Assembly: GCA_035549855.1 (NCBI GenBank)
Contig: DASZPY010000014.1
Location: 1,015-65,014, forward strand
Reading direction: 5' to 3'
DNA length: 64,000 bases
Source: Devosia sp.
GTDB taxonomy: Bacteria; Pseudomonadota; Alphaproteobacteria; Rhizobiales; Devosiaceae
Below are positions 17,866 through 23,001 of this stretch, in pieces. The notes beneath the pieces are model-generated. The model worked only from the letters and a program-made list of their open reading frames with translations, was not told the origin of the DNA and ran no database searches. Position 1 is the stretch's first letter; each line of letters opens with the position of its first letter. A program made the translations under genes and the position numbers.

Positions 17866-19458
17866 CTACGCCGCCGATGCCTTCATGAGCTTATAGGTGA
17901 TCGACTCATAAAGCGCCTCAAATGAGGCGTCGATAATGTTTGGCGAAACGCCGATCGTGTACCACCGCTCGCCCGTACCGTCCCGGCTCTCGACCAGCAC
18001 ACGGGTGACCGCGCCCGTGCCGCCGTCGAGGATACGAACCTTGAAATCGACCAGCTCGAGATCGGCGATCTGGCCCTGGTAGCGCCCGAGATCCTTGCGC
18101 ATGGCAAGGTCGAGTGCGTTAACGGGGCCATTGCCCTCCGCCACCGACATCAGCCGCTCGCCGTCGATGTCGATCTTCACGACTGCCTCGGTGACGGTGA
18201 TTTCCTCGCCGCGCGAATTGTGGCGGCGCTCGACGCTGGTGCGGTAGCTCTCGACATTGAAGAAGGTCGGCAGCGTGCCCAGCACCTCACGGGCCAGCAC
18301 GACGAAGCTGGCTTCGGCGCCGTCATAGGAATAGCCCTTGGCCTCACGCTCCTTCACCGTGCGCAGCAGCCGCTCGAGCTTCGGATCGTCCTTGCTGAGT
18401 GTGATGCCGTGGCGCTTGAGCGCCGTGAGCAGGTTCGACTTGCCGGCCTGCTGGCTCACCATGACGTTGCGCTCATTGCCGACGCTTTCGGGCGCGACAT
18501 GCTCGTAGGTCGCGGGATCCTTGGCGAGTGCCGAGGCGTGGATGCCGGCCTTGGTCGCGAAGGCCGAGGCGCCGACATAGGGCGCTTGCCGGAATGACCC
18601 ACGGTTGAGCAGATCATCGAAGGCGCGCGAGATGCGCGTCAGCTCGGCAAGCTGATCGGGCCCGATGGCGGTCTCGAACCGGTCGGCAAACACGGGCTTC
18701 AGCAACAGCGTCGGGATGATGGTTACGAGGTTGGCGTTGCCGCAGCGCTCGCCGATGCCATTGAGCGTGCCCTGGACCTGACGAATGCCGGCATTGACCG
18801 CGGCCAGCGAATTGGCGACGGCCTGGCCAGTGTCGTCATGGGCATGGATGCCGAGCTTGGCGCCCGGCGCAACCTTGAGCACCTCGCGCACGATGGCCTC
18901 GACCTCAACGGGCATCGTTCCGCCATTGGTGTCGCACAGGACGACCCAGCGCGCGCCCGAGGCGATCGCGGTTTCGACGAACTTCAGCGCATAGGCCTTG
19001 TTGGCCTTGTAGCCATCGAAGAAGTGTTCGCAGTCGATCAGCGTTTCCTTGCCGGCGGCAATAGAGGCCTCGATGGTCTCGGCGAGGTTCCTGAGGTTCT
19101 CCTCCGGCGAAATGTCGAGGGCGAGCCTGACCTGATGATCCCAGGACTTGCCGACAAAGCAGGCCGCGCTCGCGGGGGAATTGAGGATTGCCTGCAGACC
19201 CGCATCGTTGCCGACCGAGCGCCCGCTCCGCTTGGTCATGCCGAAGGCGGTGAAGGTCGCACGGTTGGTTCGCGGCTCGGCGAAGAACGCATCGTCCACG
19301 ACATTGGCACCCGGATAGCCACCCTCGACATAATCGACGCCAAGCTGATCGAGCAGCTTGGCGACAGCGATCTTGTCCTCGAGCGAAAACTCGATGCCGG
19401 CCGTCTGCGCGCCATCGCGAAGCGTCGTGTCAAAAAGGTAGAGGCGTTCCTTGCTCAT
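17866..19458 (-). CDS. cimA: Citramalate synthase
   Basis: DTTLRDGAQ, VEGGYPGAN, DCEHFFDGYKAN, LCDTNGG, C-terminal regulatory domain. Confidence 0.92.
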   Translation of the reverse strand: MSKERLYLFDTTLRDGAQTAGIEFSLEDKIAVAKLLDQLGVDYVEGGYPGANVVDDAFFAEPRTNRATFTAFGMTKRSGRSVGNDAGLQAILNSPASAACFVGKSWDHQVRLALDISPEENLRNLAETIEASIAAGKETLIDCEHFFDGYKANKAYALKFVETAIASGARWVVLCDTNGGTMPVEVEAIVREVLKVAPGAKLGIHAHDDTGQAVANSLAAVNAGIRQVQGTLNGIGERCGNANLVTIIPTLLLKPVFADRFETAIGPDQLAELTRISRAFDDLLNRGSFRQAPYVGASAFATKAGIHASALAKDPATYEHVAPESVGNERNVMVSQQAGKSNLLTALKRHGITLSKDDPKLERLLRTVKEREAKGYSYDGAEASFVVLAREVLGTLPTFFNVESYRTSVERRHNSRGEEITVTEAVVKIDIDGERLMSVAEGNGPVNALDLAMRKDLGRYQGQIADLELVDFKVRILDGGTGAVTRVLVESRDGTGERWYTIGVSPNIIDASFEALYESITYKLMKASAA

Positions 19459-19967
19459 AGCGTGCTGCTCGGTCGCGGCGTCCAACTTGCCGTGTCGTGA
19501 TCGGGATGCTGGTTGTTCGATCGGCGGATCGCCTCAAGCTCGGCCGCGTCCTCCGCGGTCTCGGTCGTGCCCATGCTTTCCACGTCGTCGAGATGGAAAA
19601 GCGAGGGGTGCTTGCCCTCATTGCCCATCTGCCAGCGCAGGGCGATCCGATGCGGCTCGTCGAAAGCACCGATGGAGATGCTGACGCGCTCGCCCGGCAG
19701 GTACTGATAGAAAAGCGGCGTGCCGCAATTGGAGCAGAAGCCGCGATCGACATTGGCCGAGCTGCGAAAGCGCGAGGGCGTGCCGCGGGTCCAGGTGAGG
19801 TTCTCATGCCGTACGCCGACCAGCGAGGCGAAGAGATTGCCTGTCGCCTTCTGGCACATACGGCAGTAGCAGACATGCGGATTGTCGTGCAGCGCCCCGG
19901 CGCGGAAGCGCACCGCGCCGCACTGGCAGCCGCCGGTGAACGGGCCCTCGGGCATCTCGAAGCTCAT
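19455..19967 (-). CDS. GFA (Mss4-like, Zn-binding) family protein
   Basis: GGCQCGAVRF, CYCRMCQK, FCSNCGTPL. Confidence 0.9.
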   Translation of the reverse strand: MSFEMPEGPFTGGCQCGAVRFRAGALHDNPHVCYCRMCQKATGNLFASLVGVRHENLTWTRGTPSRFRSSANVDRGFCSNCGTPLFYQYLPGERVSISIGAFDEPHRIALRWQMGNEGKHPSLFHLDDVESMGTTETAEDAAELEAIRRSNNQHPDHDTASWTPRPSSTL

Positions 19968-20452
19968 GCTGCGAATCCTCCAGCGGGCGGCCAATGTTCC
20001 GTGTCGTGATCGGGATGCTGGTGGCTGACGATGCCGACGAGAAACTCATCGGCCTTGGGCGTGTCGCCGGGCTGGCGAACAGGCAAGCTCGTGAGCTGGT
20101 CGAAGAAACTCAACTTGTCGCCGGGATTGACCTGCAGAACCGGCGCAACCTGTTCCGGGTCGTCGAAAGCACCGATGGCAAGCTCGATCGCGGATGCGCC
20201 GAAATCGTAGGCGAGCGGCGTGCCGCATTGAGCGCAGAAGCCGCGGCGCACCTTGTTGGAACTCTGGAACCAGGCGGGCTCGCCGCGTGTCCAGGTGACG
20301 CCATGGGCAGTGACCAGCGGCCCGAAGAAGCTGCCGAAGGCCTTCTGGCACATGCGGCAATGGCAGATCGTCGCGCGCCCTGCCCGCTTGACGGCAAAGC
20401 GCACGGCGCCGCACTGGCAGCCGCCGGTAAGCGTGGGCCTAGCGTCGGACAT
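19964..20452 (-). CDS. GFA family protein (tandem paralogue)
   Basis: GGCQCGAVRF, CHCRMCQK, FCAQCGTPL. Confidence 0.9.
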   Translation of the reverse strand: MSDARPTLTGGCQCGAVRFAVKRAGRATICHCRMCQKAFGSFFGPLVTAHGVTWTRGEPAWFQSSNKVRRGFCAQCGTPLAYDFGASAIELAIGAFDDPEQVAPVLQVNPGDKLSFFDQLTSLPVRQPGDTPKADEFLVGIVSHQHPDHDTEHWPPAGGFAA

Positions 20453-20804
20453 GACAGACCGCTTCGATGTTGTGGCCGTCGGCGTCGAGCACAAAGGCTG
20501 CGTAGTAATTCTCGCTGTATTCGCTGCGGATGCCGGGCGCGCCATTGTCCTTGCCGCCGGCGCCGAGCGCTGCCTTGTAGAAGGCATCGACCATGGCAGG
20601 TGTGTCTGCGCGAAGAGCGAGATGGACATGACCCGGAGAGCCCTCACCCACCCAGAGGAACGGATAGTCGGCGCCAAACCCAACGACCGTTCCGTAGTCC
20701 TGAAGGATCTGCAGACCGAGCGGCTTCAGCGCGGCGACGTAGAATTTGCGCGCCTGCTCGAAGTTGGTGACGTTGATTCCGACGTGGTCAACGCTCGTGC
20801 TCAT
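20439..20804 (-). CDS. VOC/glyoxalase family protein
   Basis: [39 protein letters not shown]. Confidence 0.9.
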
Positions 20805-22300
20805 CGTTTGATCTCCCATGTCGTTGTGCGGTTACCGGCGGCGTCCTTGCCGTCCATCAACTGGATGCCCTGCGTGAGAAGGTCGGCGCGAATTTGGTCG
20901 GCCTTGGCAAAATCTCTGCCGTTGAGCGCGGCGAGACGCTCCGAAATGGATGCCTGCACCCGCTCGTTAAGAGCAACATCGAGTAGTACCCCAAAATTTG
21001 CCACCCCTTGGCTGTTCAACTCGATCTCGGCGAAACCAAGAAGTTCGAGAGTCACGTGAAAGGCAGCGGCCGACTGCTCGTCACCTTTTGCTCCTTCCGC
21101 CCCAAGGCGGTGCAGGTCGGCGATTAGCGGCGACAAATTGAGATCGTCCAAGATCGGGCTACCCGAAGGTATGCGAGCCCTAAGCGCCGCAAGGTCACCC
21201 CCAAATCGCTCGTTGATAGCCAGCTTAGCGTCGGCCCACTTAGCAACGATCCTCGACGCCTCCTCCAATCGTGCGACGGCGAGATCGATCGGCTGGCGGT
21301 AGTGTGTCATCAGCATCGCGAGGCGCAGCACTTCGCCAGGCCATGACCTGCCGCCGAAATTGGTGCCGTCAAGCAGCTCGCGGATGGTGAAGAAGTTGCC
21401 GAGCGATTTCGACATCTTCTGGCCTTCGACCTGCAGGAAGCCGTTGTGCATCCAATAGCGCGCCATCGTCTCAGTGCCGTAGGCGCAGCGGGACTGGGCG
21501 ATCTCGTTTTCGTGGTGGGGGAAGATGAGGTCGAGGCCGCCGGCGTGGATATCGAATTGATGGGGATGCATCCGACCCTCCGCAGATAGCCGGCCTTCCA
21601 CCTCGTCCCAAAGGTAGCGCTCGCTCATGGCCGAGCATTCGATGTGCCAGCCGGGGCGTCCCCTGCCCCAGGGCGAGTCCCAGCCGGGCTCTTCGGCTGA
21701 ACTCTGCTTCCACAGCACGAAGTCAGCGGGATTGCGCTTGTGGGCATCCACCGCGACCCGGGCTCCCGCGAGGTTCTCCTCGAGGTTGCGGCCGGAGAGC
21801 GCGCCATAGTCCGGCATGGATTTGACGTCGAACAGCACTTCGCCCGCGGCCTCGTAAGCGTGGCCGCGCTGCTGCAGCGAGCCGATGAGGCGCTGCATCT
21901 CAGGGATGTTGTCGGTCGCGCGCGGCTGCACGGTCGGTTCGAGACAGCCGAGCGCTGTTACATCCTTCTGGTACTGCACAGCCGTCGTCTCGGTGACCTT
22001 GCGGATCGCTTCATTGAGCGGCAGGCCCGGATAGTCCCGTGCGGCCCGCGCGTTGATCTTGTCGTCCACGTCCGTGATATTTCGGACATAGGTGACATGA
22101 TCGGCGCCATAGACGTGGCGCAGCAGGCGGAACAGCACATCGAAGACGATTGCGGGCCGCGCGTTGCCGATATGGGCGAAGTCATAGACAGTGGGGCCGC
22201 AGACATACATGCGCACATTGGCCGGGTCCAAGGGGACGAAATCCTCCTTGCGCCGGGTCAGCGTGTTGTAGAGCCGCAATGTCGGTCCGGCCTCGGCCAT
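20801..22300 (-). CDS. cysS: Cysteine--tRNA ligase
   Basis: [34 protein letters not shown]. Confidence 0.97.
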
Positions 22301-22393
22301 GGACAATCCTCGCCTTCAACGCGTCACGCGCTGGCTGCGGGGCTCTTCGGGACCAGAGTTGAGGATGAAGAAAACCGCGCCGCCAACAGATGG

Positions 22394-22444
22394 TTAGCAG
22401 CAAATAATCGCGCAGATAATGCAGATCGCACGGGTGGTTTTCAT
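22394..22444 (-). CDS. Putative Cys/Ile-rich leader peptide MKTTRAICIICAIICC
   Basis: ATG AAA ACC ACC CGT GCG ATC TGC ATT ATC TGC GCG ATT ATT TGC TGC TAA, ending 93 nt upstream of cysS. Confidence 0.75.
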   Translation of the reverse strand: MKTTRAICIICAIICC

Positions 22445-22451
22445 GGCCGGC

Positions 22452-22480
22452 AATCTGACTGCGAACCGCCCCGAAAGCAA
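22452..22480 (-). promoter_or_regulatory. Putative sigma70 promoter giving a leaderless transcript
   Basis: TTGCTT-17 nt-CAGATT-7 nt-ATG; no Shine-Dalgarno before the sORF. Confidence 0.45.
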
Positions 22481-22527: not shown

Positions 22528-23001
22528 CTAGCGTCCGCGGTAGGTCTGGTGGCACTCGCCGCAGATTTGGGTCAGGCCGCGAACGGCATCCCCATAGGCG
22601 AGGTCGTCCTCAGCCAGGGCCGCCTCGAGCATTTTCGTGGCGCCGAGCTGGGCGTCCTTGAAGATGCCCTCGAACTCGTCCCACTGCTGCCAGATAATCG
22701 GCAGCGCATGGGAGTCCGGGGTGATCGACCCTTCCCGAAAGAGCGCCGGGAAATTGGTGAAGTTCTGAAGCAGCGTGGTTGCGGCTGCCACCGCGTCGTC
22801 TCCGGTCAGGGCGGCGGCTGTACGGAGGATGCCCCCGTCCTCCTTCATGGCGTCCTGGCGGGCCTTGACCAATTCGTCATTGGTCATGGTCGCGATGGCC
22901 GGGTCGACGACGACTGTCGGGAGCGTCTGGGCCGGGGCCGAGGCGGAGATGGCTGTGAGGGCGATGACGGCGGCTATTGCGGTGATCTTGCTGAGGGGCA
23001 T
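22528..23001 (-). CDS. Cytochrome c' / c556 (class II)
   Basis: Signal peptide, ARQDAMK, ALPIIW, C-terminal CGECH. Confidence 0.9.
   Translation of the reverse strand: MPLSKITAIAAVIALTAISASAPAQTLPTVVVDPAIATMTNDELVKARQDAMKEDGGILRTAAALTGDDAVAAATTLLQNFTNFPALFREGSITPDSHALPIIWQQWDEFEGIFKDAQLGATKMLEAALAEDDLAYGDAVRGLTQICGECHQTYRGR

Follow-up and report, generated by a model that had tools for sequence, protein, structure and literature searches.

Gene Content of the Operon and Its Leader

The locus described here lies in a 64,000-nt stretch of a Devosia genome (contig DASZPY010000014.1), hereafter the window, in which a set of overlapping genes is encoded on the minus strand. The first is cysS, encoding cysteine–tRNA ligase (20801–22300; PF01406, 2e-110; TIGR00435, 428 bits against a cut-off of 340). 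Its Shine-Dalgarno sequence GAGGA (22311–22307) lies 6 nt upstream of the ATG, the signal and start codon being contained in 22300–22311. It is followed by a VOC/glyoxalase-family gene (20439–20804), by two GFA-domain genes (19964–20452 and 19455–19967, both PF04828) and by cimA, encoding citramalate synthase (17866–19458; TIGR00977, 597 bits against a cut-off of 450). ATGA overlaps connect cysS to the VOC gene, the first GFA gene to the second, and the second GFA gene to cimA; the VOC gene and the first GFA gene overlap by 14 nt with the start that we chose for the latter. An earlier note on this sequence had proposed the same gene identities and an uninterrupted overlap from cysS through cimA, and Pfam and NCBIfam searches together with these coordinates confirm both. 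The presence of the VOC gene and the two GFA genes (19455–20804, minus strand) between cysS and cimA, with overlapping stop and start codons, is the arrangement of Devosia; in most other families cimA starts −19 to +150 nt after cysS. The proteins of the operon contain 4.0% Ile and 1.4% Cys.

Genome-wide, cimA is the sole match to TIGR00977 above the cut-off. Searches for the threonine deaminase gene ilvA (TIGR01124 and TIGR01127) gave no match above the curated cut-offs in this genome, which is 89% complete, and the best matches reached 49 and 65 bits. Because no ilvA exceeds its cut-off, isoleucine synthesis may have no entry other than CimA here, and the pathway in this genome may depend on it alone.

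Upstream of cysS, the minus strand carries a short open reading frame (sORF) of 16 codons followed by TAA, MKTTRAICIICAIICC (22394–22444; ATG at 22444, TAA at 22396–22394), which ends 93 nt before the ATG of cysS at 22300. Its last 10 residues comprise 5 Ile, 4 Cys and 1 Ala, so that Ile and Cys make up 9 of the 10. As a background set, we considered the 1,401 start–stop combinations of 10–30 amino acids found in the six frames of the whole window. A score of 9 was reached by three of them, the leader sORF and its two upstream TTG extensions, and the remaining 1,398 presented at most four Ile or Cys among their last 10 residues. Since all other sORFs of the window score this low, the Ile/Cys richness of the leader sORF is not a product of chance. 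Codon choice is also unusual: ATT represents 3 of the 5 Ile codons of the sORF versus 13% in the genes of the operon (10 ATT vs 65 ATC), which hints that the sORF is constrained at the nucleotide level as well.

A candidate promoter can be read directly upstream, with a −35 box TTGCTT (22475–22480) and a −10 box CAGATT (22452–22457) on the minus strand, separated by a 17-nt spacer, the −10 box lying 7 nt from the sORF ATG. There is no Shine-Dalgarno sequence before this ATG in the window. The earlier note had described the sORF, its composition, its distance to cysS, this promoter and the missing ribosome-binding site (RBS), and each of these could be read back from the sequence. In 29 Devosia leaders, both boxes are conserved, as is their distance to the ATG, and the −35 box is TTGCTT, TTGATT or TTGACN in these and in other families. 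Across relatives, the boxes are found at a fixed 6–7 nt from the sORF ATG. The promoter received no score in our promoter scan, whose consensus is of the E. coli type. The spacing between the boxes and the ATG, from which we infer the transcription start site, implies that the leader transcript would be leaderless. The gene further upstream encodes a cytochrome c' (PF01322, 2.8e-16; 22528–23001, minus strand) and its stop codon is located 83 nt before the start of the sORF. Because of this separation, the leader has a promoter region of its own.

Conservation of the sORF across Rhizobiales

We fetched cysS from 60 relatives and excised the DNA upstream. An sORF of 14–17 codons was found ~85–170 nt before cysS in all 29 Devosia loci examined; the thirtieth locus examined, from another family, was without a leader sORF. 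A covariance model built from the first 122 nt of the leader detected a single copy in this genome and 16 more matches among 150 genomes of the order Rhizobiales. All matches of the model directly precede cysS, and the 16 additional ones carry sORFs such as MKTVNPICIIGCIIIR, MNTACTIICCIITC and MKTAPALRAFVICTKIICS. An intact sORF of 14–20 codons is therefore present in 29/29 Devosia and in 16/16 model matches from other genera and families. Among named genomes, a pattern scan further found the element upstream of cysS in Brucella/Ochrobactrum, Rhizobium/Pararhizobium, Phyllobacterium, Hoeflea and Cohaesibacter, as well as in Pseudovibrio, Roseibium, Aestuariivirga, Pelagibacterium and a Methyloligellaceae MAG. 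Contigs named as Devosia encode leader peptides identical to some found in the relatives. The earlier note had suggested looking for a conserved Cys/Ile-rich sORF upstream of cysS, and such an sORF exists in every Devosia locus examined and in many other Rhizobiales. With strict filters, the covariance model (R1) gave no match outside the order among 150 class-level genomes. We attribute this result to the sensitivity of the model, because a search at the level of the sORF did find similar leaders in other orders (e.g., L207 and L236). The supplements of Ribo-seq studies of S. meliloti, searched for the peptide or for cysS, contained no occurrence of either.

The alignment of the Devosia leaders presents conserved promoter boxes, a conserved start codon (ATG, replaced by GTG in one genome), conserved Ile and Cys codons and a conserved hairpin at the stop codon, followed by a conserved tract GCGCGGUUUUCUUCA and a GAAGAG..CCCGC block. 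Insertions and deletions within the Devosia sORFs are of 3 or 6 nt, and the stop codon varies (16 TAA, 10 TAG and 3 TGA). Over the last 10 codons, leaders contain 44–49% Ile and 17–24% Cys, with values of 47% and 24% in Devosia. AT-rich relatives have replaced TGC by TGT. Leaders keep the overall composition and differ in how many Ile and Cys they contain and in what order. Because frame and composition are maintained while order and number change, the leader is best described as a translated sensor ORF rather than as a conserved micropeptide or a purely non-coding element.

The Devosia leaders (L001–L029) fall into two types, one ending in ...SIICC (stop mostly UAA, with a few UAG or UGA) and one ending in ...CIIIR (mostly UAG). 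About half of the Devosia relatives have the ...CIIIR ending, without a tandem Cys pair. The 5' arm of the stop-codon hairpin was rewritten between the two types (UGCUGCUAAC vs CCGCUAG) and its 3' arm is almost unchanged. In two Devosia loci, L007 and L013, ~75 nt comprising a GC-rich hairpin, CCCCGCGAAGGCGGGG, are inserted after the leader and ahead of cysS. This insertion extends the leader to ~220 nt and leaves the sORF and the switch untouched.

Two Mutually Exclusive Folds

Several segments of the minus-strand transcript can pair with one another. The sequence GAAAACC, which covers codons 1–3 of the sORF (22436–22442), pairs with 22376–22370 to form a helix that we term H0. The Cys-Cys-stop codons are enclosed in a hairpin, H1 (UGCUGCUAAC / GUUGGCGGCG; 22378–22402), which was recovered by RNAfold, RNAalifold and the terminator scan at the position given by the earlier note. 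Region 2 (22358–22376), the GGUUUUCUUC... tract, contains the 3' arm of H0 and can alternatively provide the 5' arm of another helix, H2. Region 3 (GAAGAG..CCGC..GCCAG; 22331–22348) constitutes the 3' arm of a long hairpin composed of H2 (UUCUUC/GAAGAG) and H3 (UUGGC/GCCAG), and its predicted duplex with region 2 and the 3' arm of H1 has an energy of −25.9 kcal/mol in the window. Finally, a small hairpin, H4 (CAGCGCG / CGCGUUG; 22317–22333), overlaps the GCCAG of region 3 and ends 5 nt (AAGGC) before the Shine-Dalgarno sequence of cysS.

We compared the predicted duplex of each segment with its own partner to its duplexes with the partners from other genomes, an alignment-free procedure evaluated with 2000 permutations. 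Cognate pairing was better for H0, H1 and H3, with 0/2000 permutations as good for each of them, and the signal was weaker for H2, the pairing of regions 2 and 3 (84/2000). Control segment pairs showed no effect. We then counted pairs on 63 leaders, aligned with a model that included neither H0 nor H3. For fold I (H0+H1), 84.6% of the cells are paired and 14 of the 18 pairs have changed on both sides, with a covariation score of 0.223 compared with 0.109 for shuffled alignments and at most 0.059 for slid controls. Fold II (H2+H3) scored 0.244 compared with 0.142 (shuffled) and at most 0.089 (slid). Covarying stems, which the earlier note had proposed to search for, are therefore found in both folds above both types of controls. 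A single position of region 2, column 129, illustrates this pattern: it switches between G and C together with column 18 in H0 (24 CG and 21 GC, a change between families) and it also covaries with column 207 in H2 (29 GC and 21 CG). The pair closing the loop of H1 likewise alternates within Devosia (15 AU and 9 GC). Judging from these sequence comparisons, in which three tests agree, the leader forms two mutually exclusive folds that are both under selection.

The earlier note had also suggested that the pyrimidine tract could pair either with the start of the leader or with the RBS of cysS. The first pairing corresponds to H0 and is upheld by the covariation and the cognate test; the second was weakly supported by the comparison (8/2000). 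Predicted energies in the window are −53.2 kcal/mol for fold I, −53.6 for a state combining H1 and H2, and −45.3 for the long hairpin without H1. Because of this last value, the long hairpin would need something to hold H1 open, for instance a ribosome positioned on the final codons. A scan of the leader region against Rfam with E values up to 10 returned nothing relevant.

Linkage of cysS and cimA

In all the named Rhizobiales loci with enough downstream DNA, cimA is found on the same strand, 0–5.2 kb after cysS. Three loci of the Rhizobium type (L093, L102 and L122) gave no cimA match, and the DNA available for them is shorter than the gap of 2.6–3.4 kb observed in their relatives. We then sampled 80 genomes across the class and 20 other families of the order, taking cysS together with the 5 kb that follow it, and left out one locus with too little downstream DNA, which yielded a sample of 99. 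In 63 of these 99 Alphaproteobacteria, cimA follows cysS on the same strand, often within 150 nt. The possibility that the linkage of cimA is a peculiarity of Devosia, unrelated to the Ile codons, was rejected since the linkage was found across Rhizobiales and the class.

Leaders were called with a fixed criterion: an ATG or GTG sORF of 8–35 codons that ends 30–300 nt before cysS and whose last 10 residues include at least 2 Ile, at least 1 Cys and at least 5 Ile and Cys combined. A looser criterion had given background on both strands and was replaced by this strict one with a reverse-strand control. An Ile/Cys leader was detected at 20 of the 63 loci where cysS is linked to cimA, at none of the 36 unlinked loci and in none of the 99 reverse-strand controls (Fisher's exact p = 4e-5 for the association between leader and linkage, a test that ignores shared ancestry). 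Ile-rich leaders therefore track the linkage to cimA, as the earlier note had proposed to verify. In addition, the four genomes of the order that lost the linkage have no leader at all. The same note had gone further and proposed that the leader explains the cysS–cimA linkage, and this part did not hold. Such a leader is missing from 43 of the 63 linked cysS genes, so the linkage is independent of it. In both age and breadth the linkage far exceeds the leader, which exploits it. We found no paper on a cysS–cimA operon or on a Rhizobiales cysS leader.

Output of the Switch

The terminator scan identified no canonical intrinsic terminator in the leader of the window. The sole terminator-like site consists of H1 followed by CGGUUUUCUU (1 found, 0.3 expected); the U-tract begins three bases (CGG) past the stem as drawn by the scan, and it is not kept outside Devosia. 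Neither region 3 nor H4 is followed by a U-run, which is also lacking in most of the other Rhizobiales leaders. In some leaders of other orders (e.g., L236 and L188), a U-run does directly follow the 3' arm of H0, in agreement with the published description of Rhodobacterales leaders.

We also evaluated the predicted openness of the cysS RBS. When fold II was forced, openness increased in 52 of 85 leaders and decreased in 8, with the median changing from 0.45 to 0.57; in this window, it did not rise (0.49 to 0.40). When a ribosome was represented by a 30-nt mask over the Ile codons or over the stop, folding at equilibrium gave no signal (median openness of 0.39, 0.42 and 0.38). The predicted duplex between region 3 and the RBS zone was slightly more stable with the genome's own zone than with those of others (−13.9 vs −12.8 kcal/mol, a difference of 1.1 kcal/mol; 0/2000 permutations as good). 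With low confidence, we propose that the output may be masking of the RBS by region 3, as in mycobacteria, possibly combined with Rho-dependent polarity on the untranslated operon.

Comparison with Known Leaders

To our knowledge, leader-peptide control of tRNA ligase genes has been little studied outside pheST. The closest element that we found is the uORFC-8-2 motif (Brewer et al. 2021, RNA Biol 18:2417, PMC8632094), a computational prediction with 145 examples, all upstream of cysS in Rhodobacterales. According to its published description, this motif contains an AUG uORF with tandem Cys codons at positions 14–15 within the first stem and a terminator with a U-run, and ribosome stalling was proposed. 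The account of the motif mentions neither Ile codons nor cimA, and as the sole description of an alphaproteobacterial cysS uORF that we know of it noted Cys codons alone (PMC8632094). The motif is absent from Rfam 15 and had no match there at E values up to 10. Compared by that description, the two elements share an AUG uORF directly upstream of cysS in an alphaproteobacterial order and tandem Cys codons inside the first stem (codons 15–16 within H1 here). They differ in that the described motif belongs to Rhodobacterales, ends in a U-run terminator and contains Cys codons only, whereas the present one belongs to Rhizobiales, has no canonical terminator and presents more Ile than Cys codons, many relatives lacking the tandem Cys (...CIIIR). 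Moreover, the 5' end pairs here with the region after the first stem and the element tracks downstream cimA, features that do not figure in the account of uORFC-8-2. The earlier note knew of no described Cys+Ile leader. This stands insofar as we found no publication on a Rhizobiales cysS leader, but the Cys half and the association with cysS have been published for Rhodobacterales (PMC8632094).

More distant parallels exist in other phyla. Canestrari et al. (bioRxiv 10.1101/834739) reported experiments in which leaderless polycysteine sORFs of mycobacteria relieve sequestration of an RBS upon ribosome stalling; the earlier note had mentioned that such attenuators exist in mycobacteria. Like these, the present sORF would be the first cistron of its transcript and is probably leaderless, and the control described in mycobacteria is translational rather than terminator-based. 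In contrast, the mycobacterial sORFs have no sequence relation to ours, contain Cys only and precede operons of cysteine metabolism, whereas Ile is the main residue here and unmasking of the RBS is weakly supported in silico. The cysS mRNA of Deinococcus deserti opens with a peptide of 10 codons, two of them Cys, and dRNA-seq placed a transcription start site at the AUG of this peptide (de Groot et al. 2014, PMC4007540). As is probable for the present sORF, this Cys-containing leader peptide is leaderless, but it belongs to an unrelated lineage, with no Ile codons or cimA reported and with transcription attenuation as the predicted mechanism (PMC4007540).

The classical attenuators of the trp, his and thr type share two traits with the present element, an sORF enriched in codons linked to the operon and mutually exclusive helices overlapping this sORF. 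Enterobacterial leaders can also be multivalent: thrL contains Thr and Ile codons, ilvL contains Leu, Val and Ile codons, and in each case one leader peptide with codons for several amino acids makes the operon respond to each of them. These leaders are generally known to be preceded by a Shine-Dalgarno sequence and to control biosynthetic operons through intrinsic terminators, whereas the present leader is common to a gene for a tRNA ligase and a gene that serves the synthesis of another amino acid.

Proposed Mechanism and Alternatives

We propose that the element acts as a leader peptide, read by the ribosome and sensing two amino acids, i.e., a multivalent attenuator, and that it controls the cysS...cimA operon; from the available sequences, we give this reading a probability of about 0.6. 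Transcription would probably start on the A of the sORF ATG or on an adjacent base, and a 70S ribosome would load on the 5' end without a Shine-Dalgarno sequence. The supply of charged tRNAs would be read over the last ten codons, where the Ile and Cys codons lie. When Ile-tRNA and Cys-tRNA are both plentiful, the ribosome would finish and leave, and the RNA would settle in fold I, with codons 1–3 paired to the GGUUUUC tract (H0), the Cys-Cys-stop codons enclosed in H1 and region 3 free. When either charged tRNA is scarce, the ribosome would stall on the Ile or Cys codons and keep H0 and H1 open, such that the 3' arm of H1 and the U-rich tract would pair with region 3 in the long hairpin of fold II. 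Fold II is the proposed ON state, in which translation of cysS would increase, and the signal would reach the genes down to cimA via the overlapping stop and start codons and relief of polarity. Leaderless initiation, stalling, the assignment of fold II as the ON state and the mode of output (translational, Rho-dependent or weak intrinsic termination) are the presumed parts of this scheme. The dual Cys/Ile sensing put forward in the earlier note is supported by the conservation of the sORF, the covarying stems and the association with cimA.

A more specific version of this scheme is possible but doubtful: the leader may be a one-shot sensor of two amino acids, gated at its 5' end, that sets translation or polarity rather than intrinsic termination of the ancient cysS–cimA unit. 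In this version, H0 would capture the transcript's own 5'-terminal AUG once vacant. Because of this capture, only ribosomes loaded during transcription would read the status of Ile-tRNA and Cys-tRNA. Cys charging capacity would then respond to Ile, and Ile synthesis to Cys, across Rhizobiales including Brucella and Rhizobium, which would represent an unrecognized regulatory coupling between the two amino acids.

Alternatively, the leader may be an attenuator of cysS that responds to Cys alone, as proposed for uORFC-8-2. In that case the Ile codons would not be sensors; they would form an unpaired, A/U-rich stretch, decoded slowly, by which the ribosome is positioned or the codons stay accessible. 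This would account for the dominance in the leader of ATT, the rarer Ile codon in this GC-rich genome, and for an ATT ATT pair that is nearly invariant; the Ile stretch is also unpaired in both folds, and the published model requires Cys codons alone. We nevertheless consider this explanation unlikely, as Ile is about twice as frequent as Cys and better conserved, and some relatives retain a single Cys with 4–6 Ile. The Ile-Ile pair also persists in AT-rich genomes (L041 and L046), where ATT is not rare, and such leaders were found only where cimA follows cysS.

It could also be the product that matters, either a hydrophobic Cys-rich micropeptide or a stable 5' RNA acting in trans like peTrpL and rnTrpL of Sinorhizobium, for which there is a precedent of attenuator products described as acting in trans within the same order (PMC6614838, PMC7968998). 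The peptide is indeed conserved across an order, and fold I is compact and closed at the very 5' end. This explanation appears very unlikely, however, because it is the composition that is kept and not the sequence: peptides differ in how many Ile and Cys they contain and in which order, and the length ranges from 13 to 23 codons. The N-terminus is moreover constrained by H0 and the C-terminus by H1, and the element is single copy and always linked in cis to cysS. Least probable of all is a non-coding switch (a riboswitch or a protein-binding leader) with an incidental ORF, which would fit the strong nucleotide conservation and the two covarying folds but hardly a start codon (ATG or GTG) at a fixed distance from the promoter, indels restricted to multiples of three, TAA, TAG and TGA interchanging at the same place, synonymous changes (TGC/TGT and ATT/ATC) that preserve the amino acids, and the lack of an Rfam family match.

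Overall, comparative evidence indicates that the element is a real and widely conserved leader-peptide switch whose Cys/cysS core was already known. The predominance of Ile codons, the tie to cimA, the helix that would gate the 5' end and the lack of a terminator in Rhizobiales appear to be new. The leader is present in well-studied genera such as Brucella, Rhizobium and Devosia, and our analysis supplies an annotation for an sORF that is unannotated in several hundred genomes. If the proposed mechanism is true, it would explain the co-regulation of cysS and cimA, a conserved but unexplained gene pair. It would also add a case of multivalent attenuation in which a tRNA ligase is coupled with a gene for the synthesis of another amino acid, and illustrate a leaderless sensor in which long-range pairing controls access to the start codon.

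Other Cys-Rich sORFs Upstream of cysS

A second class of leaders containing Cys only (C-x-C-x-C...R) was considered and rejected, as these sORFs result from reading the 3' end of the upstream gene in another frame. They were observed in L224, L176, L200, L215 and L195, from other Alphaproteobacteria, where the apparent Cys-rich sORFs end in C-x-C-x-C-(A/V)-R-R. The upstream gene reads there like the C-terminus of a glutamyl-tRNA synthetase (...LFMPLR.ALTG..HGPEL...), an assignment to gltX made by eye only. Such overlapping frames can mislead sORF screens, and they suggest a gltX–cysS(–cimA) arrangement in those lineages. Finally, one class-level locus in which cysS is not linked to cimA (L168) presents a 23-codon sORF that ends in ...RWCCA, 94 nt before cysS. 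With its tandem Cys and no Ile, this sORF may be a leader that relies on Cys alone, and it may offer a natural comparison with the Ile/Cys type.
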